Shown one piece after another: positions 41,351 to 59,942 of a DNA stretch of 64,000 nt. The number at the start of each line of letters is the position of its first letter. The first letter of the stretch is position 1. Where the stretch lies: positions 1,489 through 65,488 of the forward strand of contig DASRGI010000274.1 of assembly GCA_035651095.1 (NCBI GenBank). Reading direction: 5' to 3'. Source of the DNA: Acidimicrobiales bacterium (lineage in GTDB: Bacteria > Actinomycetota > Acidimicrobiia > Acidimicrobiales > JAUTXP01). A program made the position numbers and the translations under genes. Under the pieces are notes generated by a model. That model was not told where the DNA came from and searched no databases. It was given only the letters and a program-made list of their open reading frames with translations.

Positions 41351-42523
41351 CTACTCGGCAGCGCAGGGGCCGGTGCTGACGGGCGTCGTGCGTTGCTCGG
41401 CGGGCGTCACCTCGCGGGCGACCTCGTCCGACGTCAGCGCGAACCCGATGTCGTCGTTGCGCACCGAGCGGGAGAACACCACGCCGGCCACCGACCCGTC
41501 CGGTCGCACCAGCGGTCCACCGGAGTTGCCCGGCCGGATGCGCGATTCCAGCTCGTACACCAGCCGGGTCGTCAGGCCCTGCCCGTAGATGTTGCGGCCC
41601 ACGGCGTCGATACGGGCCAGCACCACCGCGGGCTCGGCGTCGAAGGGCCCACCCCCCGGGTACCCGAGTACCGCGCCCGCCGTGCCCCGGTCCACGGCCC
41701 TGGGCTCGAGAGAGAGGGGCGGATCCGTCACCCCAGTGGCGCGGAGGACGGCCAGGTCGAGGTTGGGGTCGAACAGCACGGCGACGGCGGGGTGCGACCC
41801 CCGGCGGTCGAGCACGACGGGCCGGCGCACCCCGGCCACCACGTGGGCGTTGGTCACCACCACGTCGGGCGCCACCACGAAGCCCGAGCCCTCGAGGATG
41901 CCGCCGCACCCCGGGCCCATGATCTTCACCGTGGAGGCACCGGCCTTCTCCACCGCGGCCCGAACCACCGGGTCGGCTGGGAGGGGCAGCCGGGCGGCGG
42001 GGGCGGGCTCGAACTGGGCGAAGACCTGGGGCAGCCCGTGGGCATCGAGGATGCGCTGCACCCGCGAGAAGACGTCCGGCGCGGGCGGGAGGATGCGGTC
42101 CAGCGCCCGCAGGACGGCGGACCGCTGCACCTCTCCGGACAGGGGGCGGGCGGGCACGTTGGCGACCAGGCTGCCGATGAGCCACGCCGACAGCAGCGTG
42201 GCCGCCGACGCCACGACCGCCCCCAGGATGGCGTCGAAGGTGGCCAGGCGAGTGCGGCGCAGTCGCCCCCACATCCGCACACCGACCTGGCGCCCCAGCG
42301 TGCCGAAAATGGCGGCCAGACCGAACACGCTGACCAGCCCGAGCAGGGCCTTGGCGAAGGGGTCGTCGGCCAGGCGGGCGAGCACCGGCGCCAGCGCGGC
42401 GCCCACGAGCAGGCCCGCGGCCAAGCCCACGAAGGACAGGGCCTGGACGGCCGCGCCCAGCCAGAGGCCATGGAGCGCGGCCGCCACCACGGCCAGAAGG
42501 ATGACGATGTCGACGAGGTCCAC
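41351..42523 (-). CDS. MarP-like membrane serine protease (CvpA-type membrane domain plus trypsin-like domain)
   Basis: An N-terminal four-helix CvpA-like region, then VVTNAHVVAG (His), DLAVL (Asp) and PGNSGGPLV (Ser). This is the same architecture as mycobacterial MarP (Rv3671c). Confidence 0.8.
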   Translation of the reverse strand: MDLVDIVILLAVVAAALHGLWLGAAVQALSFVGLAAGLLVGAALAPVLARLADDPFAKALLGLVSVFGLAAIFGTLGRQVGVRMWGRLRRTRLATFDAILGAVVASAATLLSAWLIGSLVANVPARPLSGEVQRSAVLRALDRILPPAPDVFSRVQRILDAHGLPQVFAQFEPAPAARLPLPADPVVRAAVEKAGASTVKIMGPGCGGILEGSGFVVAPDVVVTNAHVVAGVRRPVVLDRRGSHPAVAVLFDPNLDLAVLRATGVTDPPLSLEPRAVDRGTAGAVLGYPGGGPFDAEPAVVLARIDAVGRNIYGQGLTTRLVYELESRIRPGNSGGPLVRPDGSVAGVVFSRSVRNDDIGFALTSDEVAREVTPAEQRTTPVSTGPCAAE

Positions 42524-42550: not shown

Positions 42551-43003
42551 CTACCTGATCTCGATTCGCTTGGGCTTGTCGGCCGACGCCTTGGGGATCC
42601 GGACCTCGAGCACGCCATGCTCGAGTGACGCCTCGACTCCGGTGTCGTCCACGTCGGCGGGGAGCACGACCTCGAAGCGGAAGCGGCCGACGGCTCGGGT
42701 CTGGTGGCGCAAGATTCCCTTCCGCTCCTTCTCCGTGCGCTCGCCGGTGACAATCAGCCGGCGGCCCATGACCTCCAAGTCGATGTCATTCTTCTTCACG
42801 CCCGGCAGCTCGATGTCGACCACGAAGGCGTCGTCCGTCTCCTCGACGTCGGCCACGGGCATGAAGTCCGAGCCGATGGGGCCGCGCATCTGGGGCCAGT
42901 CCTGGAAGACCTGGGCCAGTTGCTGTTGCAGCTCGTCGAACGGGTCCCACCGGGCGACCTCAGCGGGACGGCGTTGCTGGCCTTGGTTGGCGGGGAGGGT
43001 CAT
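42551..43003 (-). CDS. Hsp20/alpha-crystallin family small heat-shock protein
   Basis: Alpha-crystallin domain FVVDIELPGVKKNDIDLEV...LIVTGER...F.F.V.LP..VD......A.L..GVL.V.IPK. Start taken at ATG 43003. Confidence 0.9.
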   Translation of the reverse strand: MTLPANQGQQRRPAEVARWDPFDELQQQLAQVFQDWPQMRGPIGSDFMPVADVEETDDAFVVDIELPGVKKNDIDLEVMGRRLIVTGERTEKERKGILRHQTRAVGRFRFEVVLPADVDDTGVEASLEHGVLEVRIPKASADKPKRIEIR

Positions 43004-43192
43004 GGTCCCTAGCATCCGACGGGCCGGGGCCGGCGCGCATCCCCCGAACGCGTGGTTCACCCGGCCCAGTGCGAGCGCCGGCGGCGCGGGCGCGCGTCCC
43101 TACGGGAACAGGCCGAGCGACAGGCCTATCCCGGCGATGATCATCACGACGCCAACAACAACCTTCCACCCGTCTTGACGGCTCGGTGCCGA

Positions 43193-43419: not shown

Positions 43420-45876
43420 GTGGGTGGAACGGGTACCGGCCTGGCCGGCGGCCCCACACGAGGCCGTACCGCCGAAGACCAGCTCTTGCGAGCACGCCTG
43501 CGGGCTGCGGCCCAGGGTCGAGGTGGGGTCGTGCTCCTGGAGGGCCCGGCCGGGATCGGCAAGAGCCGCCACCTGTCGGACGTGGTCACCCGAGCGGCCG
43601 AGACGGGCATGGCCGTGGCCGGGCCGGACGCCGTCGCCAGGGTGAACCAAGGGGCGGCCGGCGCGACAGCGATCACCGATGCCGAGTCGCCCCTCGTCAT
43701 CGTCCTCGACGACCTCCAGTGGGCCGACCCCGCCACCCTCCTCACCATCCAGCGCCTGACGTTGGAGTTGGTGTCCCATCCCCTGCTCTGGATCCTTGCC
43801 GGCCGGCGGGTCAGGGGCACACCCCTCGACCGGCTGCACTCTCTCTTGGAGGCAGCCGTCGGTGCGTCCCGCCTCCGCCTGGCGCCATTGGCGCCCGACG
43901 CCGTCACCGAGGTGATTGTCGACGTGCTCGGCGCCCGGCCCGACGCCGGTCTGCTCGCCCTGGCCGAGGGGGCGGGGGGCAACCCGCTGCTCGTCGTCGA
44001 GTTGGTGGAGGGCTTGCGGGACGAGGGCTCGGTCGTCGTCGAGCGCGGGGAGGCCCGGCTCCTGTCGGACCAGCTCCCTCGGCGAGTCGAGGCCTGCGTC
44101 TCCTACCGGCTGGGTGGCCTCTCCCCCGCGTCGCTCCACCTCTTGGAGGTGGCGGCCTTGCTCGGTCGGTCCTTCGCCGTCGAGGACCTGGCCGGGGTAC
44201 TGGACCAGCCCGTGGCCGACATCCTCATGCCGTTGCAGGAGCTGGTCGACGCCGGTGTGCTCGTGCCCGCATCGGGCGAGGCCATGGGGTTCCACCACGA
44301 CCTCGTCCGCCAGACGCTCTACCGGGCCATGCCCGAGCCCACTCGCAAGGCCCTGCACCGGGAGATCGGTGACCGGCTGTTGGCCCGTCACCCATCGGCG
44401 GCGCTGGCGGCCCCCCATCTGGTGCAGGGCGCCCGGCCCGGCGACCGCGACGCCCTCGCCGCTTTGGATCGGGCAGTGAACGAACTGGTGTCGACCGCGC
44501 CCGCGGCCGCCGCCGACATGGCCGTGCGGGCATTGCGCCTCACCGAGGCGAGCGACGACGCCCAAGTCGACCGGGTGGTCGCCGCCGTCAACGCACTGGT
44601 GGCCGCCGGGCGGGTGGCCGAGGCACTGGAGGTGGCCGGCCACGTTCCCGCCGGTGCCGATCCGCGCCTCGACGGGGCCGTGGCCTCGGTCATGCTCACC
44701 GACGGCCGCCTGGACGAGGCCCTGGCTTTGGCCCTGGCCGCCCACGCCGATGTCGTCCACGTGCTGACCCTGGTGGCCAAGGGCGACGCCCCCGCCGTGC
44801 GGGCCGCGGCCGAGCCCCTGCTGGCGGCCGGCGACGAGGCCTCGCTGGACGCCGGCCTCACCGCCATGGCCTGGCTGGCGTGGGACGAGGGGCGGGTGGC
44901 CGACGCCCTGGCCTTGGGGCGAGCGGCGGTGGCTCGTGACAACGACGGCAGCGCTCGAAGCCCGGCCCGACTGCTGCTGGCCGAAATGCTGACATCGGTG
45001 GACCAGTGGGCCGAGGCCGAGGCTCTGCTGGGGGCAGACGTCGAGCCCCCCTGGGCGCCTGGGTTGGCCCTGGGCCGCGCCCGCCTCCACCTGGCCGCCG
45101 GGCGATGGGACGAGGCCGCCACGGAGGCGGCTGCCGGATTGGCCCTGGCCGCCGAGTTGGCGGGTGGGCTGTTCATCGCTGGACTGCAAGCGGTGCTGGC
45201 TCACGAACCCGACCGCCACTCGCCCCACCATGCCGTGACCCTCGTGCGCTCGGCTCTGGCCGCCGGCGATCGGACGCAGGCCGCCGCCGTGGCCGCGCGG
45301 GCCGAGCAGCACGCGGCCATGAACCCCGAGTTCCCGTCGGTGGCGGCCGGCACCATGCACGCCCGGGGGTTGGCCGAGGCCGACGCCGACCTCCTCGCGC
45401 GCGCCGCCGGCCGGCATCGACGCCCGTGGCTGCGCGCGTCGGCATGGGAGGACGCCGGCAAGCTGTCGGGTCCGGAGCAACTCGAGCGGGCCCTCGCCGC
45501 GTACGAGAGCATGGGCGCCGAGCACGACGCAGCCCGGGTGCGGGCCCGCCTGCGGCGCATGGGTGTCCGCCGCCGCCATTGGGTCCGGGAGGATCGTCCC
45601 CTCACCGGGTGGAACAGCCTCACCGACACCGAGCGGCGGGTGGCCGCCCATGTGGCCGACGGCCTGACCAACGCCCAGGTGGCCGAGCACATGTTCCTGT
45701 CCCGCCACACGATCGACTTCCATTTGCGCCAGATCTTCCGGAAGCTGGCCATCAGCTCGCGGGTGGACCTGGCCCGGGTGGCGCTGGGAGAGCAAGGCAA
45801 GCAAGGCGACCAAGGCCAGACCACGCGGACGCGGGATGTGCCCGCTCCCCCATCGATGCGACCCTCGACGTGGTGA
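43420..45876 (+). CDS. LAL-type regulator (large ATP-binding LuxR family: AAA/NTPase domain, helical repeats, C-terminal LuxR HTH)
   Basis: GTG start at 43420. Walker A VLLEGPAGIGKS and Walker B-like LVIVLDDLQWAD. The long Ala/Leu-rich middle is TPR-like. C-terminal HTH: LTDTERRVAAHVADGLTNAQVAEHMFLSRHTIDFHLRQIFRKLAISSRVDL. Confidence 0.85.
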   Translation: MGGTGTGLAGGPTRGRTAEDQLLRARLRAAAQGRGGVVLLEGPAGIGKSRHLSDVVTRAAETGMAVAGPDAVARVNQGAAGATAITDAESPLVIVLDDLQWADPATLLTIQRLTLELVSHPLLWILAGRRVRGTPLDRLHSLLEAAVGASRLRLAPLAPDAVTEVIVDVLGARPDAGLLALAEGAGGNPLLVVELVEGLRDEGSVVVERGEARLLSDQLPRRVEACVSYRLGGLSPASLHLLEVAALLGRSFAVEDLAGVLDQPVADILMPLQELVDAGVLVPASGEAMGFHHDLVRQTLYRAMPEPTRKALHREIGDRLLARHPSAALAAPHLVQGARPGDRDALAALDRAVNELVSTAPAAAADMAVRALRLTEASDDAQVDRVVAAVNALVAAGRVAEALEVAGHVPAGADPRLDGAVASVMLTDGRLDEALALALAAHADVVHVLTLVAKGDAPAVRAAAEPLLAAGDEASLDAGLTAMAWLAWDEGRVADALALGRAAVARDNDGSARSPARLLLAEMLTSVDQWAEAEALLGADVEPPWAPGLALGRARLHLAAGRWDEAATEAAAGLALAAELAGGLFIAGLQAVLAHEPDRHSPHHAVTLVRSALAAGDRTQAAAVAARAEQHAAMNPEFPSVAAGTMHARGLAEADADLLARAAGRHRRPWLRASAWEDAGKLSGPEQLERALAAYESMGAEHDAARVRARLRRMGVRRRHWVREDRPLTGWNSLTDTERRVAAHVADGLTNAQVAEHMFLSRHTIDFHLRQIFRKLAISSRVDLARVALGEQGKQGDQGQTTRTRDVPAPPSMRPSTW

Positions 45877-46097
45877 CGTCATCCGACCGCGATCCCGAAC
45901 CTGACTGGCTGGCCGTGTGGGCCGATGTGCTCGCCCATCAGGAGCAGATGTCGGGACTGTTGCGACGGCTCGACCAGTTGCGAGCGGTGGCGGGCGACAG
46001 CGAGGGCGCGCTCCTCGAACAGTGCGCCCGCCAGTTGCGATCAGGCGAACACCGCCTCCAAGAACTGGCGGCGGTGTTCGGCAGCACCGCCGCGTAG
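45873..46097 (+). CDS. Candidate 74-aa ORF coupled to the LAL regulator, directly upstream of dnaK
   Basis: GTG 45873 overlaps the LAL stop as GTGA (45873-45876). The predicted product is helical (VTSSDRDPEPDWLAVWADVLAHQEQMSGLLRRLDQLRAVAG...). The ORF ends 33 nt before the dnaK ATG. GC3 is only moderate, so coding status is uncertain. Confidence 0.35.
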   Translation: MTSSDRDPEPDWLAVWADVLAHQEQMSGLLRRLDQLRAVAGDSEGALLEQCARQLRSGEHRLQELAAVFGSTAA

Positions 46098-46130: not shown

Positions 46131-48025
<1,895 letters not shown>

Positions 48026-48026
<1 letters not shown>

Positions 48027-48514
48027 TGGCCGGCACGGGCGAGACCACCGAGGAGCCGGAGGTCGAGCCAACCGACGAGCTCGATCCCCTCGTGGCCGAA
48101 CTGGAGGACCGTCTTCGCCGGGCCCTGGCCGACCTCGACAACCTGCGCAAGCGCTTCGACCGCGAGGTGAACCGAGAGCGCGACGCCGAGCGCCGCCGCG
48201 TCGCCTCCGAGTGGTTGCCGGTCGTCGACAACCTCGAGCGCGCCATCCAGCACGCGGCCGCCGACCCCGATCTGTTGATGCGAGGGCTGGAAGCCGTGCA
48301 GGCACAGGCGGTGGCCGCCCTGGCCCGGCTCGGCTTCCCCCGCTTCGAGGACGTGGGCGAACGCTTCGACCCCGCCCGCCACGAGGCCGTGGGCGCGGTC
48401 GAGACCGACGAGGCCGATCCCGGGACGGTGGCTGCCGCCGCCCGGCCCGGCTACGGCACCCAGGAGGAGGTCCTCCGCCCCGCGTCCGTCGTGGTCACGA
48501 GGTCCCCTGACTGA
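48026..48514 (+). CDS. grpE: Nucleotide exchange factor GrpE
   Basis: ATG 48026 shares one base with the dnaK stop (TGATG). [18 protein letters not shown]...[10 protein letters not shown]...FDPARHEAV is the GrpE core. Confidence 0.9.
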
Positions 48515-49497
48515 TGGCGCCCCGCCGCGACTTCTACGAGTCCCTGGGCGTGAGTCGCGGCGCCTCGCAGGACGAGATCCAACGCGCCTACCGCAAGCTG
48601 GCCCGCACCTACCACCCGGACGTCAACAAGGACCCGGCTGCCGAGGAGCGGTTCAAGGAGGTGTCGGAGGCGTACGACGTGCTGTCCGACCCCGAGACCC
48701 GCCGCAAGTACGACGCCTTCGGGCCCGACTTCCGCCAGGTGCCCGACGGCGTCGACCCGGACACGTGGGCCCGAGCGCAGCAGGCCGGCGCACGCGGAGG
48801 CGCGGGCGGCGGGCCGAGGCCGCGCCGCGGCGCCCAGGGGCAGCAGGTGTGGTCGGCCGAGGACCTCGACATCGATCTGGACGACCTCTTCGGCGGCATG
48901 TTCGGGGGCATGGGTGGCGGGCGGGGCGGGCGGCGTGGGTGGGGCCCCATCGCCGGCGCCGACCAGGAAGCGGAGATCACCCTCACCGTGGAGGAGGCCT
49001 ACAACGGCGGCCGGCGCACCATCACGATCACCGGCCCCGACGGTCCCCGCGCCCTGGAGGTCGCCATCCCGCCCGGCGTCACCGACGGCCAGCGCATCCG
49101 CCTGGCCGGGCAGGGCGGCCAGGGCACCAGTGGCGCCGCCGCCGGCGACCTGTACCTCGTCGTCCGCCTGGCGCCCCACCCCCGCTACCGGGTGCAGGGC
49201 CGGGACATCTCCGTCGACCTGCCCCTCACGCCGTGGGAAGCGGCGCTGGGCGCGTCGGTGGCGATCATGACGCCAGGAGGCGAGGCCAAGGTGCGCGTGC
49301 CGGAAGGATCGTCGAGCGGCCGGCGCCTGCGCCTCAAGGGCAGGGGTCTGCCCAACCCCAAGGGATCGCCCGGCGACCTGTACACCGAGGTCCGCATCAT
49401 GGTGCCCAAGAAGCTGACGGACGAGGAGCGCCGGCTGTTCCAGGAGCTGGCCGCCGTCTCCACCTTCGACCCGAGGCGCGAGGGGCGGCAGCGATGA
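48514..49497 (+). CDS. cbpA: J-domain co-chaperone of the CbpA type (no zinc-finger domain)
   Basis: J domain [35 protein letters not shown], a G/F-like region and two DnaJ_C beta domains. No CxxCxGxG repeats are present anywhere in the 327 aa. ATG 48514 overlaps the grpE stop (TGATG). Confidence 0.9.
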
Positions 49498-49811
49498 CCA
49501 CCACGGTGTTGACCCGCCGCCGCCTGGTCGCCGTCGAACTCCTCCCCCTCGACACGTTCGCCCGCCGCACCGGCTTGCATCCCGATCTGGTTCGCCGTCT
49601 CGTCGCCCTGGGTCTGCTCGAGGCGACATCGGACGCGGCGGGCGAGCTGTGGTTCCCCCCCACCCAGCTCCCCGCCGCGGCCCGCCTCCAGAGACTGCGT
49701 GCCGGGCTGGCCCTCAACTGGGCGGCCACCGGCCTGGTGGCCGACCTGCTCGACCGGATCTCGGCGCTCGAAGCAGCCCTCCGAAGCAGAGGAGACACAC
49801 CGTGGACATGA
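49494..49811 (+). CDS. cbpM: CbpM-like chaperone modulator (MerR_2-type HTH)
   Basis: ATGA overlap with the cbpA stop. [27 protein letters not shown]...[32 protein letters not shown] parallels E. coli CbpM (...[28 protein letters not shown]...) as I recall it. Confidence 0.65.
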
Positions 49812-52447
49812 ACCGGCTCACCCAGAAGTCCCAGGAGGCACTGCACGACGCCCAGACCAAGGCCATGCGCTTCGGGCACACCGAGGTCGATGGCGAGCAC
49901 CTGCTGCTCGCCCTCCTCGAACAGCCCGAGGGGCTGGTGCCCCGGCTGCTGGTGGCGGCCGACGCCGACCCCGACGCCATCAGGGCCGAGGTCGAAGCCG
50001 AGCTGGAACGCCGGCCCCGCACGTCGGGGCCGGGCGCGTCGCCCGGCCAGGTGTTCGTCACGCAACGGCTGAGCCGCTTGCTGGACAAGGCCGAACAGGA
50101 GGCCAAGCGGCTGAAGGACGAGTACGTCTCCGTCGAGCACCTGGTGATCGCCTTGCTGGACGAGGGCTCGGGCACCGCCGCCGGCCGCATCTTCTCGCAG
50201 CACGGCATCAGCCGCGACCGCTTCCTCCAAGCGCTCACGTCGGTGCGGGGCAACCAGCGGGTCACCTCGGCCATGCCCGAGGTGGCGTACGAAGCGTTGG
50301 AGAAGTACGGGCGCGACCTGGTGGCCGAGGCCCGCGGCGGCCGCATGGACCCCGTCATCGGGCGGGACGGGGAGATCCGCCGCGTCATCCAGATCCTCTC
50401 CCGCAAGACCAAGAACAACCCCGTCCTCATCGGCGACCCGGGCGTGGGCAAGACGGCCATCGTGGAAGGGCTGGCCCAGCGCATCATGCGGGGCGACGTG
50501 CCCGAGGGCCTGCGCAACCGGACGGTCTTCGCCCTGGACATGGGCTCGCTCGTCGCCGGGGCCAAATACCGGGGTGAGTTCGAGGAGCGACTGAAGGCGG
50601 TGCTCACCGAGGTGAAGGCGGCCGAGGGCCGCATCATCCTGTTCGTCGACGAGATGCACACGGTGGTGGGCGCCGGCGCGGCCGAGGGGGCCATGGACGC
50701 GGGCAACATGCTCAAGCCCATGCTGGCCCGGGGCGAGCTGCACATGATCGGCGCCACCACGGTCGACGAGTACCGCAAGCACGTGGAGAAGGACGCCGCG
50801 CTCGAGCGGCGCTTCCAGCCGGTGATGGTGGACGAGCCCTCGGAGGAGGACGCCATCTCCATCCTGCGGGGCCTGCGCGAGCGCCTGGAGGTGTTCCACG
50901 GCGTGAAGATCCAAGACGCCGCCCTGGTGGCTGCCGTGGTGCTCAGCCACCGCTACATCTCCGATCGTTTCCTGCCCGACAAGGCCATCGACCTCGTGGA
51001 CGAGGCCTGCGCCATGCTGCGCACCGAGATCGACTCCATGCCCGCCGAGCTGGACGAGCTCACCCGCCGGGTCACCCGGCTGGAGATCGAGGAGGCGGCC
51101 CTCTCCAAGGAGAAGGACGACGCCAGCAAGCAGCGGCTGGAGGAGCTGCGCAAGGAGCTGGCCGACCTGAAGGCCGAGGCCGATGCCATGCGGGTGCAGT
51201 GGGAGGCCGAGCGCCAGGTGCTCAAGCGGGTGCAGTCGCTGCGCGAGGAGATCGAGCGGGTGCGCCAAGAGGCGGACGAAGCCGAGCGTGCCTACGACCT
51301 GAACAAGGCGGCCGAGCTCCGCCACGGCCAACTGCCCGAGCTGGAGCGCCGGCTGCAGGCGGAGGAGGAACAGCTCGCCTCCAAGTTCGGGGCCCACCGC
51401 CTCCTGCGCGAAGTGGTGACCGAGGATGAGGTGGCGTCCATCGTGTCCCGCTGGACGGGAATCCCCGTGAGCAGGTTGAAGGAGGGCGAGCGGGAGAAGC
51501 TCCTGCGCCTGGATGAGCTCCTGCACGAGCGCGTGGTCGGTCAGCACGAGGCCGTGCAACTGGTGGCCGACGCCATCATCCGGGCCCGCTCGGGCATCAA
51601 GGACCCACGCCGGCCCATCGGCTCGTTCGTCTTCCTCGGCCCCACCGGCGTGGGTAAGACCGAGCTGGCCCGGGCCCTGGCCGAGGCCCTGTTCGACACC
51701 GACGAGAACATGGTGCGCATCGACATGAGCGAGTACCAGGAGCGCCACACGGTGAGCCGCCTGGTGGGTGCTCCCCCCGGGTACGTCGGGTACGAGGAGG
51801 GCGGCCAGCTCACCGAGGCGGTACGGCGCAAGCCGTACTCGGTGGTGCTCTTCGACGAGATCGAAAAGGCCCACCCCGACGTGTTCAACACCCTGTTGCA
51901 GGTGCTGGACGACGGCCGCCTGACGGACGGGCAGGGGCGCACCGTCGACTTCCGGAACACGGTCGTGATCATGACGTCGAACATCGGGTCCGACTACCTG
52001 CTCGAGGGCGTGACGCCCGACGGCGAGATCAAGCCCGACGCCCGCGGCCTGGTGATGGCCGAGCTGCGCCGCCACTTCCGGCCCGAGTTCCTCAACCGGG
52101 TGGACGACATCGTGCTGTTCAAGCCCCTCACCCAGCAGGAGATCGAGCGCATCGTCGACCTCATGTTCAACGACCTGCGGTCCCGGTTGGCCGATCGGCG
52201 CATGACCCTCGAGCTCACGGAGGAGGCGCGCCGCTACATCGCCCGCCAGGGCTTCGACCCCGTGTACGGCGCCCGTCCCCTGCGGCGCTTCATCTCCCAT
52301 GAGGTGGAGACCCGGATCGGCCGGGCTCTGCTGAGCGGTGAGGCCAAGGACGGTGCCGTCATCCGCGTCGACGCAGTCGAGGGCGACCTCGTCATCACCG
52401 TCGACAACCCGACCAACAACAACGAGAGGCAGGAGGCCTTCGCATGA
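49808..52447 (+). CDS. clpB: ATP-dependent disaggregase ClpB
   Basis: ATGA overlap with the cbpM-like stop. Clp_N repeats, two AAA modules ([32 protein letters not shown]) and a long middle coiled coil ([27 protein letters not shown]...). Confidence 0.95.
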
Positions 52448-53019
52448 TCGTGTTGATGGATTGGCGCGCCGCGGCGGTGCGGGGCGGCGCCGCCCTGCTC
52501 TTCGGCTTCCTCGCCTTGGTGTGGCCGGGACTCACTCTCACCGCCCTGGTCCTGCTGTACGGCGCCTTCGTGGTCGTGCACGGCGTGTCGACCCTGGCCG
52601 AGGTTCTGACCCACGCCCCGGGCACGGCCGGCCGGCGGGGGCCGCTGGCCTTCGGGGGCATCGTCAGCGTGGCCGCCGGCATCGTCACGTTCCTGTGGCC
52701 GGGCATCACCGCCCTGGTGCTGCTCTACATCATCGCCGCATGGGCGGTGGTGACCGGGGCCATGGAGATCGCCGCCGCCATCGAGCTGCGCCGAGTGCTC
52801 CGGCGGGAGTGGCTGCTGGTGCTGGGCGGCGTGCTGTCCATCGCCTTCGGCATCGTGCTGGTCGCGGCGCCGGGCACGGGCGCCCTCGCCGTCACCTGGC
52901 TCATCGGTTGGTACTCGGTTGCCTACGGCGCTCTTCTGGTGGCCCTCGCCGTCCGGCTGCGGCGGTGGCAGCTCCAGGCCCGGCGCCAAGGGCAAACGGC
53001 CCGGCCCGTGTCGGCATGA
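52444..53019 (+). CDS. HdeD/DUF308 family membrane protein
   Basis: ATGA overlap with the clpB stop. Six hydrophobic helices with the DUF308 repeat pattern ([41 protein letters not shown]). Confidence 0.8.
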
Positions 53020-53885
53020 GCACGCCGTCCCTGCCCGGGCCGCCCGAAGCCATCGAGGTCATCCTCGTCCCTCTCGACGGGTCGCCCCTCTCCGAGCTGG
53101 CGTTGCCGGTGGCGTCCAGCCTGGCCCGTCGCTTCGACGCCGGCGTCCATCTGCTCAGCGCCGTGCCCACGGCCGACGACGTCGCCGAGCGCGAGGCCCA
53201 ACTGAGCAAGCTCGAACTGTCGGCCAAGTTCGTGGAGCGCGAGGTGGTCATCAACCTCGACCCCGCGGGAGCCGTTCACGACCGGCTGGTGCACATGCAG
53301 AAGGCGGTGATCTGCATGGCCACGCGGGGGCGGGGCCGCAGCGCGGCCATCTTCGGCTCGGTGGCCGATGACGTCATCTTCCGGTGCCGCGATGCGCTGG
53401 TGCTGGCCGGGCGCATGTTGGACCCCCGGCTGCCGGGCACGGGCGTGATCCTCTGCGTGGACGAGACGCCGGCGTCCGCCGCCCTGCTCCCCATCGCCTG
53501 GCGCTGGTCCGAGCTGCTGCACGAGCCGCTCACCGTCATGACCGTGGCCGAGCCCGTGCCCGAGCCCTTCCAGTCCGGGACCATCCACCGCCGCTTCGGG
53601 CCCGACGGCGACGTGGACGGGTACCTGTCCGATCTGGTGCGGGCCCTGCGCGCCGAGGGCAAGGAGGTGCAGACCAAGGCGATCTACGACCCCATCAGCC
53701 CGGCCGAGGGCATCCTCGCCTACCTCGACGCCCACCCCCCCTACCTGGTCGTCGCCGGTACCCACGCCCGCACCGGCCTGGCCCGTTTGGCCCTGGGCAG
53801 CACGGCCGCGGCCGTCGTGCACAGCAGCCCGGCCCCGGTACTCGCCATCCCCCGACCTGACATCCAGCGAAAGCGGGATCGATGA
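53016..53885 (+). CDS. Tandem universal stress protein (two UspA domains)
   Basis: ATGA overlap with the upstream stop. Two Usp-like halves (ILVPLDGSPLSELALPVA...ICMATRGRG..GSVADDV and ILCVDETPASAALLP...LVVAGTHARTGLARLALGSTAAAVVHSSPAPVLAI). Confidence 0.8.
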   Translation: MSTPSLPGPPEAIEVILVPLDGSPLSELALPVASSLARRFDAGVHLLSAVPTADDVAEREAQLSKLELSAKFVEREVVINLDPAGAVHDRLVHMQKAVICMATRGRGRSAAIFGSVADDVIFRCRDALVLAGRMLDPRLPGTGVILCVDETPASAALLPIAWRWSELLHEPLTVMTVAEPVPEPFQSGTIHRRFGPDGDVDGYLSDLVRALRAEGKEVQTKAIYDPISPAEGILAYLDAHPPYLVVAGTHARTGLARLALGSTAAAVVHSSPAPVLAIPRPDIQRKRDR

Positions 53886-54760
53886 ACATCGCCAACCTCA
53901 TCTGGCTGTTCTTCCTGCTGTCCAGCATCCAACCGGTCGTCGCCCAACGCGTGCTCCTCGTGCAGCGGGCCCGGGCCATACGGGAGCTGGAGAAGCGCAA
54001 CCACTCGCGCGCCATCACCATGATCCACCGGCGTGAGGGGTTCGCCTTCCTGGGCATCCCCTTCGGTGGCTTCATCGACATCGAGGACTCGGAGGCCATC
54101 ATCCGGGCCATCGAGCTCACGGCCGACAACATCCCGATCGACCTGATCCTGCACACGCCGGGCGGGTTGGTGCTCGCCGCCGAGCAGATCGCCTCGGCCC
54201 TGGCCGACCATCCGGCCAAGGTCACCGTCTACGTGCCCCACTACGCCATGAGCGGGGGCACGCTGATCGCCATGGCCGCCGACCAGATCGTGATGGCGCC
54301 GTCGGCCGTGCTCGGTCCCGTCGACCCGCAGCTGGGCGAGTGGCCGGCGGCGTCCATCCTGGCCGCGGTGGCCCAGAAGGACCCCAACCGGGTGCACGAC
54401 AAGACGCTCATCTACGCCGACATGGGCCGCAAGGCCCAGCAGCAGGTGGAGGAGTTCGTGACCAACCTGCTGGAGAAGCGCCTGCCCCACGAGCAGGCCA
54501 AGGACGTGGCCCACACCATGTCCGAAGGCCGCTGGACCCACGACTTCCCCATCCAGGTGGAGCACGCCCGGTCGCTGGGCCTCCCCGTCAGCACCGACCT
54601 ACCCGACGAGGTGCGCCTGCTCATGCGCCTGTACCCGCAGCCCCGCGGCCGGCGGCCATCGGTGGAGTACATCCCCGGGCCCTACAACACCCCGGCGCCG
54701 CCACCGCCGGCCCGATCGCCTCGGCGGGCACCGAGCACGAACGGGGCAGGCAAGGCATGA
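53882..54760 (+). CDS. SDH-family (serine dehydrogenase proteinase / ClpP-fold, SppA-related) membrane-anchored serine protease
   Basis: ATGA overlap with the usp stop. An N-terminal hydrophobic anchor, then LILHTPGGLVLAAEQIA...YAMSGGTLIAMAADQIVM, typical of the ClpP/crotonase-fold SDH_sah family. Confidence 0.7.
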   Translation: MNIANLIWLFFLLSSIQPVVAQRVLLVQRARAIRELEKRNHSRAITMIHRREGFAFLGIPFGGFIDIEDSEAIIRAIELTADNIPIDLILHTPGGLVLAAEQIASALADHPAKVTVYVPHYAMSGGTLIAMAADQIVMAPSAVLGPVDPQLGEWPAASILAAVAQKDPNRVHDKTLIYADMGRKAQQQVEEFVTNLLEKRLPHEQAKDVAHTMSEGRWTHDFPIQVEHARSLGLPVSTDLPDEVRLLMRLYPQPRGRRPSVEYIPGPYNTPAPPPPARSPRRAPSTNGAGKA

Positions 54761-55209
54761 CCGCCCAGGCCAAGGTCGTCGTGTGCGAGCAATGCGGGAC
54801 CAAGAACCGGGTCCCACCGGCGGCCGAGGGCGTACCGAGGTGCGGGCGGTGCCACAACCCGCTGCCATGGATGGTGGACGCCGGCGACGACGACTTCGCC
54901 ACTGTGGCCGAGGCGGCGTCCATCCCCGTGCTGGTGGACCTCTGGGCGCCGTGGTGCGGGCCGTGCCGGATGGTGAGCCCGGCCCTGGAGCAACTGGCCA
55001 AGTCGTTCGCGGGCCGGCTCAAGCTGGTCAAGATCAACGTGGACGAGGCCCAGCACGTGGCCGGGCGCTTCGGCGTCCAGGGCATCCCGACCCTGCTGCT
55101 GCTCCGGGGTGGGGAGGTGGCGGCCCGCCAGGTGGGCGCCGCCCCCGAGCACGCCTTGCGGGCCTGGCTCGAGCAGTCGCTCGGCAGCGCCCCCGCCGCC
55201 AACCCTTGA
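54757..55209 (+). CDS. trxC: Thioredoxin 2-type thioredoxin with N-terminal zinc finger
   Basis: ATGA overlap with the upstream stop. CEQCGTKNRV...CGRCHNPL (two CxxC pairs), then the active site WAPWCGPC. Confidence 0.9.
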   Translation: MTAQAKVVVCEQCGTKNRVPPAAEGVPRCGRCHNPLPWMVDAGDDDFATVAEAASIPVLVDLWAPWCGPCRMVSPALEQLAKSFAGRLKLVKINVDEAQHVAGRFGVQGIPTLLLLRGGEVAARQVGAAPEHALRAWLEQSLGSAPAANP

Positions 55210-55230: not shown

Positions 55231-55638
55231 TCAGCCCAAGCGCACCGCGTCGGCCTGGCACACGGCCTCGATGGTAGTGAGCAGTTGCGACCAGGCGGTG
55301 GCCTTGTCCAGGTAAGCGTCCGCCCCGCGCTCCACCACTTCGAGCAGGGTGTACGGGTCCGGGAACGCCGAGAACACCACGATGCGCGCCTTGGGCGCCG
55401 CCTCCCGCAGGCGAGGCAGGGCGGTGATGCCGTCGATGCCGGGCAGGTGCAGGTCGAGCACGATCACGTCCGGCTGCGTCCGCTCGACGACGGCCACACC
55501 CGCGTGGCCGTCACCCGCCTGACCCACGAGGCGGAAGCGGGAGTCAACGTCCAGCATCACCTCGATCAACGTTCGCAGCTCGGCATCGTCGTCGATCACG
55601 ACAACTCGATGCACCACCGGGTCCGCACCGTCTTTCAT
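55231..55638 (-). CDS. Stand-alone receiver-domain response regulator (CheY-like)
   Basis: ATG 55638 is preceded by GGAGG. VVVIDDDAELR, DVIVLDLHLPGIDG, IVVFSA and ADAYLDK. There is no output domain (135 aa). Confidence 0.85.
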   Translation of the reverse strand: MKDGADPVVHRVVVIDDDAELRTLIEVMLDVDSRFRLVGQAGDGHAGVAVVERTQPDVIVLDLHLPGIDGITALPRLREAAPKARIVVFSAFPDPYTLLEVVERGADAYLDKATAWSQLLTTIEAVCQADAVRLG

Positions 55639-55695
55639 GTCGGCCTCCGGGAAGAAGTCGTACGTACTGCTATCGGCACCAGGGGGCCTCGCCTG

Positions 55696-55711
55696 TAGCC
55701 CGATCGGGCTA
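55696..55711. promoter_or_regulatory. Perfect 16-nt palindrome TAGCCCGATCGGGCTA (terminator-like hairpin or operator)
   Basis: It lies 1 nt downstream of the SixA-like stop (55713) and 58-73 nt upstream of the receiver gene ATG (55638). Confidence 0.4.
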
Positions 55712-55712
55712 G

Positions 55713-56153
55713 TCAGGCCGGCGGCGGGAGGTAGACGCACGGGCCCCGGGGGTTGAGCACCCACGTTGATCCCTTGGCGCAGCGGGGCCGGGACGGGATG
55801 GGCCATCCCACGTGGCGCAGGCCGGCCAGCACCACGTCGATCACGTCGCCATGGGTACAGACCGCGACGTCGCCCACCGCATCGAGCACGAGGTCGAGGG
55901 CGTGGTGACCCCTCCCCTCCCGGAGCGCGCCGGCTGTCTCCACCTTGAGGGACCGGGCTTCGGCCAGCGGCGTCACCGTCGCCACGCACCGCACGGCCGG
56001 GCTGGAGAGGATGCGATCGGCGGGGTACGGCGAGAGCAGCTCGACCAGGCCGGCCGCCTGCTGCTCCCCCCGCCGCGTGAGCGGGCGCAGGTTGTCGTCG
56101 CCGGGCCAGGACTTGCGCGACACCGCCACCGCGTGGCGGACCAGCAGGATCAC
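55713..56153 (-). CDS. Histidine phosphatase superfamily protein (SixA-like)
   Basis: GTG 56153 overlaps the ppk stop as GTGA. Catalytic RH motif ILLVRHAVA and second His in VCTHGDVI. About 146 aa, the size of SixA-type phosphohistidine phosphatases. Confidence 0.7.
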   Translation of the reverse strand: MILLVRHAVAVSRKSWPGDDNLRPLTRRGEQQAAGLVELLSPYPADRILSSPAVRCVATVTPLAEARSLKVETAGALREGRGHHALDLVLDAVGDVAVCTHGDVIDVVLAGLRHVGWPIPSRPRCAKGSTWVLNPRGPCVYLPPPA

Positions 56154-58279
56154 GCCAGCTCGTCGTCGAGGACCAGGGCCTCGACGTCGGAGGCCCGCCG
56201 GGGACGGGCGCCCACGTGGCCCCGGGCCACGGCCAACTCGTGCAACCGCCGCTGGGCGGCGACGGGCTCGGCGCCCGCGCCGGTGCCGGCGGCCGGCTGG
56301 ACCCGCTGCCACCGGCCGTCGCCGTCCAGCTCCCACGCCTGCGTGTTGTCGGCCAGGGACACATCGAGGATCTCGTCCAGGCGTCCCTGGAGCTCTCGCC
56401 CCTCCACGAACACCATGGCCTCCACGCGCGAGTGCAGGTTGCGGGGCATGAGGTCGGCCGAGCCGATGAGATAGCGCGTGCCCGGCTCACCCGGCGTGCC
56501 GAAGCGAAGGATGCGCGAGTGCTCCAGGTACCGGCCCACGATCGAGCGCACCCGGATCGTGTCGGAGATGCCGGGGACCCCCGGGCGCAGGCAGCAGATG
56601 CCCCGCACGATGAGGTCGATGCCGGCCCCCGCCTGCGAGGCCGCGTACAGGGCGTCGATGACGGCAGGGTCGGCCAGGCTGTTGACCTTGAGGGTGATGC
56701 GGCCGCCCGGGTGCGCCTGCCCGGCGATGAGGTCGACCACCTGGCCGGACAGCGTGTCGGGTGCCAGCACCAGCCGGTCGTAGGTGACGTTGCGGCTGTA
56801 GCCGGTGAGGAAGTTGAACAGCTCGCTCAGGTCGGCGCCCAGCACGGGGTCGGCCGACAGGAGCCCGATGTCCTCGTACAGCCGGGCTGTCTCCGGGTTG
56901 TAGTTGCCGGTCCCGATGTGCGAGTACCGGCGCACCACCTCGTCCTCCAGGCGGGCCACCAGCGCCACCTTGGCATGGGTCTTGAGGCCGACCAGCCCGT
57001 ACACCACGTGCACGCCGGCGTCCTCCATGGCCCGGGCCCATGCGATGTTGGCCTCCTCGTCGAAGCGGGCCTTGAGCTCGACGATGGCGACCACCTGCTT
57101 GTTGGCCTGGGCCGCCCGGATGAGGGCCTTCACGATGGGACTGTCGCCCGACGTGCGGTACAGCGTCATCTTGATGGCGAGGACGTTGCGATCGCTTGCC
57201 GCCTGTTTGATGAACGATTCGACCGAACTGTTGAACGATTCGTACGGGTGGTGCACGAGGATGTCGCCCTCCTGCAGCGCTCCGAAGATGTCGCCTTCGG
57301 CCGCGGCCAGGTGGCGCTCGGTGACCGACGGCCAGGGGTCGTCCTTCAGGTCGGGGCGGGCCAGCGCGTGCACGGCCCACAGCCCGGTCAGGTCGAGGGG
57401 CCCGTCGATCACGTAGACGTCCTCGGGCTCCAGCTCCAGTTCGGCCAGCAGGAGGCTCAGGATCTCGTCGGACATCGTGGCGTCGACCTCGAGGCGCACG
57501 CCCCGGCCCCGGCGCCGGCGGCGCAACTCCAACTCCACGGCGGCGAGGAGGTCGTCGGCTTCCTGGTCGCCCCCCGTGAGGTCGGCGTTGCGGGTGACCC
57601 GGAAGGGGAAGTGGCACTCCACCTCCATGCCCGGGAAGAGCAACTGGATGTGGGCGGCGATCACCTGCTCCAGGGGCACGAAGCGTTCGCCGTCGGGGAG
57701 GACGACGAAACGGGGCAGCAGCGCGGGCACCTTCACGCGGGCGAAGCGGCGCTCGCCCGTGGCTGCGTCCCGCACCATGACGGCCAGGTTCAGGGACAGG
57801 TCGGAGATGTGCGGAAACGGGTGCCCGGGGTCGACCGACAGCGGCGTGAGGACGGGGAACACCTTCTCGTCGAAGACCGTCTCGAGGAACTTGCGGTCGT
57901 CATCGTCGAGCGACGTCCACGCCGACATGCGGATGCCGGCCCGGGCCAGGGCGGGCACGATCTCCTGCGTGAACAGCGCGGTCTCGCGGTCGACCAGGTC
58001 GAGGACCACCGTGCGCAACTCGGCCAGTTGCTCCACGGCCGACATGCCGCCCACGCCGATCTGGGGCACGCCCGCGGCCACCTGGTCCTTGAGGCCGGCC
58101 ACGCGCACGCGGAAGAACTCGTCCAGGTTCTGGCTGAAGATGGCGAGGAACTTGCACCGCTCCAGCAGCGGGACCGACTCGTCCTCGGCCAGAGCCAGCA
58201 CCCGGGCGTTGAACGCCAGCCACGACAGCTCGCGGTCGAGGTACGGACCGACGCCGGCCACGTGGACGGCGGTGGTCAC
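56150..58279 (-). CDS. ppk: Polyphosphate kinase 1
   Basis: YLDRELSWLAFNARVLALAED..PLLERCKFLAIFSQNLDEFF, the autophosphorylated His region (HHPYESF) and tandem PLD-like HKD-type motifs (HAKVALV, HSRIL). The start is taken at GTG 58279, 4 nt after the ROK gene stop. Confidence 0.92.
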   Translation of the reverse strand: MTTAVHVAGVGPYLDRELSWLAFNARVLALAEDESVPLLERCKFLAIFSQNLDEFFRVRVAGLKDQVAAGVPQIGVGGMSAVEQLAELRTVVLDLVDRETALFTQEIVPALARAGIRMSAWTSLDDDDRKFLETVFDEKVFPVLTPLSVDPGHPFPHISDLSLNLAVMVRDAATGERRFARVKVPALLPRFVVLPDGERFVPLEQVIAAHIQLLFPGMEVECHFPFRVTRNADLTGGDQEADDLLAAVELELRRRRRGRGVRLEVDATMSDEILSLLLAELELEPEDVYVIDGPLDLTGLWAVHALARPDLKDDPWPSVTERHLAAAEGDIFGALQEGDILVHHPYESFNSSVESFIKQAASDRNVLAIKMTLYRTSGDSPIVKALIRAAQANKQVVAIVELKARFDEEANIAWARAMEDAGVHVVYGLVGLKTHAKVALVARLEDEVVRRYSHIGTGNYNPETARLYEDIGLLSADPVLGADLSELFNFLTGYSRNVTYDRLVLAPDTLSGQVVDLIAGQAHPGGRITLKVNSLADPAVIDALYAASQAGAGIDLIVRGICCLRPGVPGISDTIRVRSIVGRYLEHSRILRFGTPGEPGTRYLIGSADLMPRNLHSRVEAMVFVEGRELQGRLDEILDVSLADNTQAWELDGDGRWQRVQPAAGTGAGAEPVAAQRRLHELAVARGHVGARPRRASDVEALVLDDELA

Positions 58280-58283
58280 TGCG

Positions 58284-59255
58284 TCACGACCGGCCCGCCA
58301 AGTCGGCCGCCAGCAGGGCGGCGCCGATGGCGCCCCCGCGATCGCCCAGTGCCGTCGGCACCACGCGCACCGGGTTGTCTCGATAGACGCGGCTGCGCCC
58401 CGCCTGCTCCACCCGTCCGACGAAGGCAGGACCGAGCCGGTCGGCGAGTCCCCCACCCAGCACCACCATGGGCACGTCCAAGAGCGTAACGGCGCTGGCG
58501 ATGGCGATGCCCAACGTCGTGACGGCGTCGTCCAACAGTTCGACGGCGAGCACGTCACCGGCGGCCAGCGCCTTGGCGAACACGCTCGACGTCATGCGCC
58601 GGGCCGGCGCCAGGTCGACGAGCATCGTGTCGCGACCGCGGGACTCGAGGGTCCGAGCCCGGCGCTCCATGGACGCCCGGCCGGCGTAGACCTCCAGGTG
58701 GCCACGCCCGCCGCAGCGGCACACCCGGCCGTCCGGGCGCACGATCACATGGCCGATCTCGGCGGCCAGCCCGGACGGCCCTCGGCGCAACTCGTTGCCG
58801 AGGATGAGCCCGCCCCCCACGCCCGTGCCCACGAACACGCCCAGGACGTCGGGCACGCCCTGGGCCACGCCCCGGCGGTGCTCGGCCAGGGTGCCCACGT
58901 TCACGTCGTTGTCGACCATGACCGCCCGGCCGTCGAGGGCGTCGGACAGCGCCGCGCCCAGGTCGAAGGGCCCCACCCACCCTGACAGGTTGGGGGCGAA
59001 GCGCACCGTACTGGCGTCGGCGTCGACGTTGCCGGGCACACCGATACCCACCAGGTTGGCCCGCTTGGGTGCACCCAACCCGTCCACCACCTTGCGGACG
59101 GCGTCCACCACGGCCAACGGACCGCCCTGCACGGGCGTCTTGCCCTTGGCCTCGGCGATGACGTCGTTGCCCTCGAGGAGGACGGCGTAGATCTTGGTCG
59201 CGCCCAGGTCGATGCCAATCAGCGATCGCGGGGGCACGGCCCCGCAGTTCAGCAC
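58284..59255 (-). CDS. ROK family sugar kinase (glucokinase-like)
   Basis: IGIDLGATKI, DNDVNVGTLAE and the ROK zinc motif GHVIV...RVCRCGGRGHLE. Confidence 0.85.
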   Translation of the reverse strand: MLNCGAVPPRSLIGIDLGATKIYAVLLEGNDVIAEAKGKTPVQGGPLAVVDAVRKVVDGLGAPKRANLVGIGVPGNVDADASTVRFAPNLSGWVGPFDLGAALSDALDGRAVMVDNDVNVGTLAEHRRGVAQGVPDVLGVFVGTGVGGGLILGNELRRGPSGLAAEIGHVIVRPDGRVCRCGGRGHLEVYAGRASMERRARTLESRGRDTMLVDLAPARRMTSSVFAKALAAGDVLAVELLDDAVTTLGIAIASAVTLLDVPMVVLGGGLADRLGPAFVGRVEQAGRSRVYRDNPVRVVPTALGDRGGAIGAALLAADLAGRS

Positions 59256-59309
59256 GCGCGGGTGAGCGTGCGCTGTCCTGGGGGTGAATTCGGGGTGAAC
59301 TCGGCGGGA

Positions 59310-59942
59310 TCAGCCCAGGCGGAGGCGCTGGGTGACGTTCACGGCGTGGTCGCCCAACCGCTCGAAGAAGCGAGCGGCCAGAGCCATCTGGATGGCGACG
59401 GGGACGGAGACCCTGGCCGACGCCAACTCGGCCGTGAGGCTCACGTGCAGGTCGTCGATCTCGTCGTCGATGGCGCGGAGACGGTTGCCGGCCTTGGTGT
59501 CCCTGGCCATGTAGGCGTCGGCGGCCATGCCCCACATCTCCACGCCCACCGCGCCCATCTGGGCCACCAGGTCACGGCCCCGCGGCGTCAGCCAGGCGCC
59601 CAGGTTCTGTGCGGCCAGGGCGGCGATGTGGGTGGCCAGGTCGCCACTGCGTTCCAACTCCGGCGCGATGCGCACGATCATGAGCAGGTTGCGGGCCTCG
59701 GCCTCGCCCGGGCCGCCCGGTTGGGTGAGCCCGCGCAGGGCCAGGTCCTCGATGCGGGCGTGGAGCTCGTCCATGGCCTCGTCCTCGGCCGCCACCCGGC
59801 GGGCCGCCTCGCGGTTCCCGGTGAGGAAGGCGTCGGTGGCACCACCCAACGCCTCGCGCACGAGGGTGAAGGCACCGACGACCAGGCTGTCCAACTCGGC
59901 CAGGTCGACGGGCGAAACCGAGTGGAGCGTCATCCCGGCCAA
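59310..59942 (-). CDS. phoU: PhoU-domain phosphate signalling protein
   Basis: Two PhoU repeats carrying E..D...D-type motifs (AAEDEAMDELH..., AIDDEIDDLH...) and FFERLGDHAVNV. Confidence 0.85.
   Translation of the reverse strand: MAGMTLHSVSPVDLAELDSLVVGAFTLVREALGGATDAFLTGNREAARRVAAEDEAMDELHARIEDLALRGLTQPGGPGEAEARNLLMIVRIAPELERSGDLATHIAALAAQNLGAWLTPRGRDLVAQMGAVGVEMWGMAADAYMARDTKAGNRLRAIDDEIDDLHVSLTAELASARVSVPVAIQMALAARFFERLGDHAVNVTQRLRLG

Follow-up and report, generated by a model that had tools for sequence, protein, structure and literature searches.

Why would a DUF308/HdeD membrane protein, a tandem universal stress protein (USP), a membrane-anchored SDH-family serine protease and a Trx2-type thioredoxin be encoded in a row directly behind the disaggregase gene clpB? 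This question is raised by four genes at positions 52444-55209 of a 64,000-nucleotide stretch of an Acidimicrobiales genome (assembly GCA_035651095.1, contig DASRGI010000274.1), hereafter called the window. A first-pass annotation of this DNA had proposed that their products form a membrane-associated protein quality-control or redox-repair unit, co-produced with ClpB and DnaK. We found that duf308-usp-sdh-trx is the tail of a nine-gene overlapping chain, dnaK-grpE-dnaJ-hspR-clpB-duf308-usp-sdh-trx. These four genes probably represent the distal half of a translationally coupled heat-shock operon, coding for accessory stress-tolerance factors that would be made together with DnaK and ClpB. They can be viewed as the actinobacterial equivalent, encoded on the chromosome, of the 'cell-envelope' and 'oxidative-stress' modules of the tLST (transmissible locus of stress tolerance), or locus of heat resistance (LHR). 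We give this interpretation a probability of roughly 0.6.

All nine genes lie on the forward strand of the window, whose GC content is ~0.69-0.75 along the profiled stretch. The chain starts with dnaK (Hsp70; 46131-48026), an open reading frame (ORF) used as a phmmer query and recovered in relatives. It continues with grpE (48026-48514) and dnaJ (48514-49497), identical to genes of contig L001 that match PF01025 GrpE and PF00226/PF01556, respectively. Next come an hspR-like gene for a MerR-family regulator (49494-49811; PF13591 MerR_2, 47.2 bits), in the hspR position of actinobacterial dnaK operons, and the canonical Hsp100 disaggregase gene clpB (49808-52447; TIGR03346). The last four genes are duf308 (52444-53019; PF03729), usp (53016-53885; PF00582), sdh (53882-54760; PF01972 and NF047768) and trx (54757-55209; PF00085 and TIGR01068), which closes the operon 21 bases before a convergent response-regulator gene.

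From dnaJ onwards, consecutive genes share an ATGA (dnaJ/hspR, 49494-49497; hspR/clpB, 49808-49811; clpB/duf308, 52444-52447; duf308/usp, 53016-53019; usp/sdh, 53882-53885; sdh/trx, 54757-54760), and the two preceding junctions read TGATG (dnaK/grpE, 48024-48028; grpE/dnaJ, 48512-48516). The four overlapping genes and their ATGA junctions had been annotated correctly to the base. Their DNA is identical in two independent assemblies (ENA contig L001 and Logan contig L002), and therefore the arrangement is no assembly artefact. In high-GC actinobacteria, no operon junction is commoner than the four-base ATGA overlap. The overlaps of the chain point to co-transcribed, translationally coupled genes, and in themselves they are nothing unusual. 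A consensus scan detected no terminator-like site on the forward strand between 45500 and 56000. Promoter predictions over 10.5 kb were uninformative, with 2 sites versus 0.4 expected, one of them inside sdh (54075-54102). An uninterrupted overlapping chain with no predicted terminator thus argues for the suggested co-production with ClpB and DnaK.

To place the block in an evolutionary context, we collected the best 80 genome loci encoding homologues of the protease (designated by L numbers) and searched their six-frame ORFs with the window proteins and their neighbours. The full nine-gene chain is present in L018 and in its metagenome twin L087. The order clpB-DUF308-USP-SDH-Trx is also found in L004 and in L092, the latter with an extra TrkA_C gene, and DUF308-USP-SDH-Trx in L014 and L015, where the end of the contig cuts off the upstream part. 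A rhomboid gene follows Trx in L004 and L015. Thus, the four-gene block and its predicted linkage to clpB recur in relatives among the Acidimicrobiia/Actinomycetota.

Other actinobacterial loci harbour parts of the block. The USP gene is missing from L008, L012 and L090/91 (clpB-DUF308-SDH-Trx), and DUF308 from L020 (clpB-USP-SDH-Trx) and L023 (clpB-SDH-Trx). In L011 and L019, DUF308 is displaced behind a TrxR gene (USP-SDH-Trx-TrxR-DUF308). SDH and Trx2 are apart in L005 and L028 (clpB-Trx-TrxR-(HSP20)-SDH), as well as in L024 from Actinopolymorpha, in which SDH lies upstream of the entire dnaK operon and Trx after clpB, and L007 reads SDH-clpB. Loci without dnaK or clpB nearby often have HSP20 genes, such as L083 (HSP20-HSP20-SDH), L086 (SDH and three HSP20 genes) and, similarly, L045.

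Trx directly follows SDH in 13 of the 31 loci of Actinomycetota type, USP is adjacent in eight, DUF308 is present in eight, and six contain all four families. DnaK, ClpB or HSP20 is encoded in the available flanks of 19 of these 31 loci, as against four of the 51 that come from other phyla. Although conserved, the block is modular: it has a stable core, the SDH-Trx2 pair in a heat-shock context, to which DUF308 and USP may or may not be added. The fixed four-part unit implied by the first-pass annotation is therefore not supported. Proteins with three BON repeats are encoded next to the SDH or DUF308 gene in L006, L011, L019, L021, L022, L050 and L089. The last of these reads BON-YfdX-DUF308-HSP70, an echo of the YfdX-HdeD pairing of the tLST.

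The family assignments initially made for the four proteins were all borne out by Pfam and NCBIfam searches. The sdh product matches PF01972 SDH_protease over practically its full length (376.8 bits, cut-off 31.3; profile positions 12-278 of 286) and NF047768, 'SDH family Clp fold serine proteinase' (398.2 bits, cut-off 250; positions 1-260 of 260). Its AlphaFold model (predicted local distance difference test score, pLDDT, 80; predicted template-modelling score, pTM, 0.77) is composed of a long N-terminal helix, residues 3-40, and a core of ClpP/crotonase-type fold. The best Foldseek matches are the SppA proteins of B. subtilis and E. coli and the NfeD stomatin-specific protease 1510-N, followed by ClpP, with a probability of 1.00, and a profile search of the Protein Data Bank (PDB) sequences returned 1510-N and SppA only.

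SppA and NfeD/1510-N have the ClpP/crotonase fold and belong to MEROPS family S49. Peptidases of this type are membrane-anchored, ATP-independent and self-compartmentalising. Ser124 of the SDH protein, the proposed nucleophile, aligns with the catalytic Ser97 of 1510-N, and the invariant Lys166 is one residue off the position expected for Lys138 of that enzyme. The family description of PF01972 gives a Ser-Asp-His triad, and S49 enzymes have a Ser/Lys dyad. Residues kept in at least 92% of homologues are Ser124, Lys166, His 49/91/110/120/220 and Asp 69/134/148/173/180/221. This was read as the majority residue of each column among 79 extracted homologues, six of them in a wrong frame, so that such residues are carried by ~73 of the 79. 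In contrast with these similarities, identity to SppA and 1510-N is only 15-23%, PF01972 is a separate family with no member of solved structure, and the domain of the SDH protein is predicted to face the cytoplasm. No Band_7/SPFH (stomatin partner) family was found among the Pfam-labelled neighbours in L001, L083-L087 and L090-L093.

The predicted topology is based on the charges that flank a single N-terminal hydrophobic segment (residues 3-21). There are none before the helix, and residues 23-52, which follow it, contain nine Arg/Lys versus three Glu (net +6). The positive-inside rule thus predicts an N-out/C-in orientation that would place the catalytic domain in the cytoplasm. Disorder is predicted for the last 40 residues (pLDDT < 50), which nevertheless hold a strongly conserved YPQPRGRRPSVEY motif. 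Residues 251-268, which read YPQPRGRRPSVEY..P.PY, are strongly kept among close homologues, and part of the motif is found across phyla. By analogy with B. subtilis SppA, this segment may be a docking or self-processing peptide.

The PF01972 family is large, with at least 8000 homologues at E <= 1e-10, and remarkably well conserved, with 52-76% identity between members from Actinomycetota, Cyanobacteria, Proteobacteria and Bacillota. We found no functional study of it in the literature searched. A prophage head-maturation protease was considered and rejected: phage tblastn matches are weak and partial (mostly <30% identity, <=63% coverage), and the NCBIfam head-protease model gives 52.7 bits for a cut-off of 120. 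No match to any of the four proteins was obtained with PADLOC, and anti-phage defence was likewise discarded.

The DUF308 protein matches PF03729 in three stretches (89.8 bits, cut-off 25), consistent with DUF308 repeats. It has six hydrophobic segments, with Arg-rich loops all on one side of the membrane, predicted to be the cytoplasmic one. The USP matches PF00582 in two stretches (97.3 bits; best stretch, residues 144-279) and is thus a tandem protein. Its C-terminal domain aligns with solved USPs and reads G-T-H-A-x9-G-S-T at the ATP-binding motif G-x2-G-x9-G-S/T, with an Ala at the second Gly, and the spacing of the motif deviates in the N-terminal domain.

The thioredoxin (PF00085, 94.5 bits; TIGR01068, 109.6 bits, cut-off 96.8) has its WCGPC active site at residues 66-70. 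As in Trx2 (TrxC), the thioredoxin fold is preceded by an N-terminal four-Cys zinc ribbon. Its cysteines, C10/C13 and C30/C33, align with those of the solved Trx2 structures of Thermus (1V98) and Deinococcus (7D6L), which match the protein over its full length, although the ribbon model PF21352 scores below cut-off (20.2 versus 27.1 bits). The score for the NCBIfam TrxC equivalog NF008229 is also under cut-off (104.3 versus 125 bits), and for that reason we refer to the protein as Trx2-type rather than as a strict TrxC equivalog. The USP and Trx2 have no hydrophobic segment, and both are presumably cytoplasmic. The SDH and DUF308 proteins are devoid of Cys residues, and hence Trx2 cannot act on disulfides in either of them.

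A cyclic-nucleotide (cNMP)-binding TrxR-like protein is encoded beside Trx2 in 10 of the 31 actinobacterial loci. This flavoprotein, fused to a cyclic-nucleotide-binding domain (PF00027 + PF07992), is found beside Trx2 or a few kb away in L003/L084, L005, L008, L011, L018, L019, L020, L024, L028, L035 and L090, and not in the window. Its position suggests a cNMP-regulated system for the reduction of Trx2.

The closest known system, overlooked in the first-pass annotation, is the tLST/LHR heat-resistance island of beta- and gammaproteobacteria, which codes for the small heat-shock protein (sHSP) sHSP20, ClpK, (Cls, FtsH), sHSP-GI, YfdX1/2, HdeD-GI, orf11, Trx-GI, KefB, PsiE, an HtpX-like protein and DegP (PMC8290217). 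In the E. coli example L098, HdeD-GI is a DUF308 protein and Trx-GI a Trx2-type zinc-ribbon thioredoxin, and the window proteins are 34% and 38% identical to them, respectively, over their full length. In both systems, a gene for an Hsp100 disaggregase, one for an HdeD (DUF308) protein and one for a Trx2-type thioredoxin follow each other in the same relative order, and the tLST also contains membrane or envelope proteases and sHSPs. When hdeD-GI is deleted, the tLST confers less resistance to heat and chlorine (PMC8407380). Genetic evidence for a role of HdeD in acid or heat resistance concerns E. coli HdeD and tLST HdeD-GI only (PMC8290217, PMC8407380).

Nevertheless, the window operon is not a member of the tLST group, as it has no ClpK/ClpG, YfdX, KefB, PsiE or mobility genes. 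The tLST has a stand-alone ClpK/ClpG with an sHSP20 core, in contrast with the canonical ClpB of the window, which is combined with DnaK. This ClpB scores 1347 bits against TIGR03346 (cut-off 1232), and with the models for ClpK and ClpG it reaches 776 and 747 bits, respectively (cut-off 1900). The genes for YfdX1/2, KefB, PsiE, the HtpX-like protein and DegP are absent from the window operon, and only genes for an HSP20 and a CvpA-trypsin protease are found ~9-11 kb upstream. Conversely, the USP and SDH protease are found in the window and not in the enterobacterial tLST. Finally, the block resides on the chromosome as an extension of the housekeeping dnaK operon, unlike the tLST, an island flanked by insertion sequences (IS) or transposons. 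There is no transposase among the annotated neighbours of the block, and the same chromosomal arrangement is found in L012, L018, L020 and L090. The window operon plausibly works like the tLST. The idea that orf11 of the tLST might be an unrecognized homologue of SDH or of rhomboids was rejected, as no Pfam family matches it and tblastn with SDH retrieved no enterobacterial tLST plasmid.

The window also resembles the actinobacterial HspR dnaK operon, with the same dnaK-grpE-dnaJ-hspR order and a MerR-family regulator, and differs from it by the fusion of clpB and four more genes into an overlapping chain. In M. tuberculosis, clpB, acr2 and the hsp70/hsp40 genes are under repression by HspR (PMC7448276). 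Genes of the same three classes surround SDH in Actinomycetota.

Searching plasmids by tblastn revealed SDH homologues of 52-54% identity in Alphaproteobacteria. They belong to a conserved, IS-flanked island, MarR-FtsH-AAA ATPase-(sigma-70)-HdeD-hypothetical-NDUFS4-like-rhomboid-SDH-TrxC-cation:proton antiporter, which is found in four genera, Agrobacterium (L094, an Agrobacterium pusense plasmid), Paracoccus, Brucella (Brucella anthropi; Brucella/Ochrobactrum) and Shinella; the loci of this group are L094, L099, L100, L101 and L102. A remnant, SDH-TrxC-antiporter, is present in Roseomonas. With 70-72% identity to ClpK of the E. coli/Klebsiella tLST, the AAA ATPase belongs to the ClpK/ClpG type of disaggregases, and the rhomboid gene overlaps the start of SDH. 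As in the window, genes for HdeD (35% identity between the Agrobacterium and window proteins), SDH and Trx2/TrxC lie, in that order, downstream of a gene for an Hsp100 disaggregase. Unlike the window operon, the islands are mobile, with a ClpK-type ATPase, a rhomboid and an antiporter, they lack a USP and the DnaK system, and their HdeD and SDH genes are two or three genes apart. The island is a variant of the tLST in which the orf11 position is taken by rhomboid and SDH. The tLST has been reported mainly from beta- and gammaproteobacteria (PMC8290217). The variant appears to be undescribed: we found no description of it in the literature searched, and the tLST papers among it mention neither rhomboids, SDH proteases, Alphaproteobacteria nor Actinobacteria.

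Rhomboid genes adjoin SDH on the same strand in 14 of the 51 non-actinobacterial loci, from at least seven phyla. They are almost always immediately upstream of SDH, with gaps of -4 to ~120 bases, and a sample was confirmed by Pfam. Linkage to a chaperone gene was also detected in Synergistota, with ClpB adjacent to SDH (L080). In six Leptolyngbya-type cyanobacteria (L058, L061, L066, L071, L073 and L078), a LexA gene (PF01726 + PF00717) is found upstream of SDH on the same strand, 20-110 bases away.

Together, these data are consistent with the following model. Heat or oxidant stress would induce the whole chain, and DnaK and ClpB would resolve cytoplasmic aggregates. The SDH protein would act as an ATP-independent, oligomeric peptidase of the SppA/NfeD kind, tethered by its N-terminal helix and facing the cytoplasm. 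It might clear damaged membrane-proximal proteins or the peptide remnants of intramembrane cleavage, substrates that its pairing with rhomboids elsewhere suggests. Trx2 would keep thiols reduced, and its zinc ribbon could be a zinc-release redox switch. There is a precedent in Ruc of M. tuberculosis, which illustrates that four-Cys zinc-ribbon proteins from dnaK/clpB/sHSP loci can be redox-activated chaperones (PMC7448276), but Ruc has no thioredoxin domain, and zinc binding by the window Trx is a prediction. The HdeD-type protein would protect or organize the membrane, given that heat resistance depends on its homologue in the tLST. An optional role, that of a nucleotide-binding regulator, is envisaged for the tandem USP. 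The quality-control and redox role proposed for the block at first pass is thus compatible with the tether and SppA/NfeD-like fold of SDH, its pairing with rhomboids and the tLST parallel, even if the notion of a fixed unit is not. The four proteins are likely co-regulated, and they need not form a stoichiometric complex.

Such a complex is nevertheless conceivable, with HdeD as a scaffold, SDH as the catalytic component, the USP as a nucleotide sensor and Trx2 as a redox partner. Consecutive ATGA overlaps favour equimolar and co-localized synthesis, the DUF308-USP-SDH-Trx order is kept in five loci (L004, L014, L015, L018 and L092), HdeD, SDH and TrxC travel together on the alphaproteobacterial islands, and the Arg-rich loops of DUF308 and the SDH domain are predicted on the same cytoplasmic face. 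However, the composition of the block varies by loss of USP or by loss or displacement of DUF308, SDH occurs alone or with HSP20 only in L083, L086 and L093, and neither SDH nor DUF308 offers Trx2 a Cys residue. We thus regard a physical complex of the four as unlikely. A different role for the protease would be that of an extracytoplasmic SppA-type signal-peptide peptidase in secretion or envelope stress, linked to the chaperones by regulation only. Its nearest solved folds are indeed SppA proteins, the B. subtilis enzyme also has a single N-terminal hydrophobic helix, and the rhomboid with which SDH pairs is another membrane protease. This hypothesis is difficult to reconcile with the positive-inside charges, the presumably cytoplasmic USP and Trx2 encoded by the coupled neighbouring genes, and the score for the SppA-domain model TIGR00706 (36 bits, cut-off 155), which make it improbable.

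It is more improbable still that four genes with no relation to heat shock ended up after clpB by chance, even though 12 of the 31 actinobacterial SDH loci have no chaperone gene nearby and DUF308 paralogues also occur in unrelated contexts, e.g. L088. The SDH-chaperone linkage recurs in differing arrangements (L005, L007, L024, L028, L045 and L083) and is also found in Synergistota and beside ClpK on alphaproteobacterial plasmids, and, with 19 of 31 versus four of 51 loci, it is far more frequent than the few per cent roughly expected for a 20-kb segment. Lastly, ClpB and SDH could be imagined as an ATP-dependent unfoldase-peptidase pair similar to ClpA or ClpX with ClpP, given the ClpP-like fold of the protease and the adjacency of the two genes in L007, L023 and L080. 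This ClpB is nevertheless canonical: its AAA_2 domain is aligned with the entire Pfam model and contains no insertion, and the IG[LFM] tripeptide expected of a ClpP-docking loop is absent from the whole protein. In addition, SDH resembles the SppA/NfeD branch, which is ATP-independent, more closely than it does ClpP. We therefore give such a pair hardly any credence.

Several observations also weigh against the stress-operon interpretation that we favour. The 12 actinobacterial loci mentioned above have no chaperone gene in the available DNA, several of them being short contigs. The loci are phylogenetically related, and hence the counts are not independent events; many of the contigs are also short. 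Some labels of metagenome-assembled genomes are doubtful, such as that of L019, assigned to Burkholderiales, which mirrors the Acidimicrobiia locus L011. The HAIR operator of HspR, CTTGAGT-N7-ACTCAAG, was not detected with up to three mismatches in the 64-kb window or in the dnaK upstream regions of relatives, and we infer heat induction and HspR control of the chain from operon membership. The topology, oligomeric state, catalytic residues and substrates of SDH are all predictions. In the tLST, deletion of orf11, trx-GI, orf14, orf15 or degP-GI left membrane-lipid oxidation unchanged (PMC8407380), so that even there Trx2 need not make a strong contribution of its own.

Other sequence elements might take part in regulation. 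With at most one mismatch, the motif TGAACCACGCGTTC occurs only three times in the actinobacterial loci (524 kb), and all three copies are upstream of stress genes: at 43046-43059 on the reverse strand of the window, before the HSP20 gene; at 2811 of L012, before the ORF that leads into dnaK; and at 12065 of L019, before DUF308. It is a candidate shared promoter or operator element, but its designation as an operator would take more than three sites. Furthermore, a 15-nt inverted repeat, CGAACACCGCCTCCA / TGGCGGCGGTGTTCG (46046-46080; 93% complementary, 5-nt loop), lies 50 bases before the start of dnaK, where it may serve as attenuator, RNA thermometer or operator. It falls inside the end of a small ORF of ~76 codons (45867-46097, forward strand) that ends 33 bases before dnaK and has no Pfam match. 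Helical ORFs of 60-80 residues (...LL.RLD.L...LR..D..L..LV..L) are also found directly before dnaK in L012, L018/L087 and L090. They possibly represent a conserved leader or co-chaperone gene of the dnaK operon of Acidimicrobiia.

The genetic environment of the operon contains other stress-related genes. On the reverse strand are those for the HSP20 small heat-shock protein (42551-43003, the start at ~43003 being taken from the phmmer alignment; PF00011, 75.5 bits) and for a MarP-like membrane serine protease with CvpA and trypsin-like domains (41351-42523; PF02674 + PF13365), both outside the operon. A large AAA_16-TPR-GerE regulator of the LuxR/STAND type is encoded between HSP20 and the operon, on the forward strand (43420-45876). 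Homologues of the MarP-like protease adjoin the SDH-Trx pair in L003/L084, L014 and L020, and large GerE regulators and MarP-like proteases recur near dnaK or SDH in L003/L084, L014, L020, L021, L022, L027 and L028. Downstream, the convergent genes at 55231-59942 (reverse strand) code for a receiver-only response regulator and a histidine phosphatase. Beyond the latter, ORF translations point to a polyphosphate kinase, a ROK-family kinase and PhoU, a phosphate/polyphosphate cluster that is not part of the finding.

Three independent genomic associations of the SDH family agree: with chaperone genes in Actinomycetota, with rhomboids in many phyla, and with ClpK, HdeD and TrxC on alphaproteobacterial plasmids. 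Their convergence makes membrane-proximal proteolysis during proteotoxic or oxidative stress a testable hypothesis for PF01972, and provides a first functional lead for this family. The tLST concept is extended to an alphaproteobacterial variant and a chromosomal actinobacterial analogue, which suggests that Hsp100 disaggregases are generally accompanied by HdeD-type proteins and Trx2. In practical terms the value is modest: it lies in the annotation of genes often mislabelled 'ATP-dependent Clp protease proteolytic subunit', and in candidate determinants of heat or chlorine tolerance. A broader and decidedly tentative proposal is that PF01972 proteases might be a widespread, unrecognized class of cytoplasm-facing, membrane-tethered clean-up peptidases. 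They would act after rhomboids in many phyla and would have been repeatedly recruited to heat and oxidant tolerance, in the dnaK-clpB operon with Trx2 in Acidimicrobiia and other Actinomycetota, and in mobile tLST-like islands with ClpK, HdeD and TrxC in Alphaproteobacteria. If so, different phyla would share a stress-tolerance toolkit by horizontal transfer, and the window operon would represent its chromosomal form.

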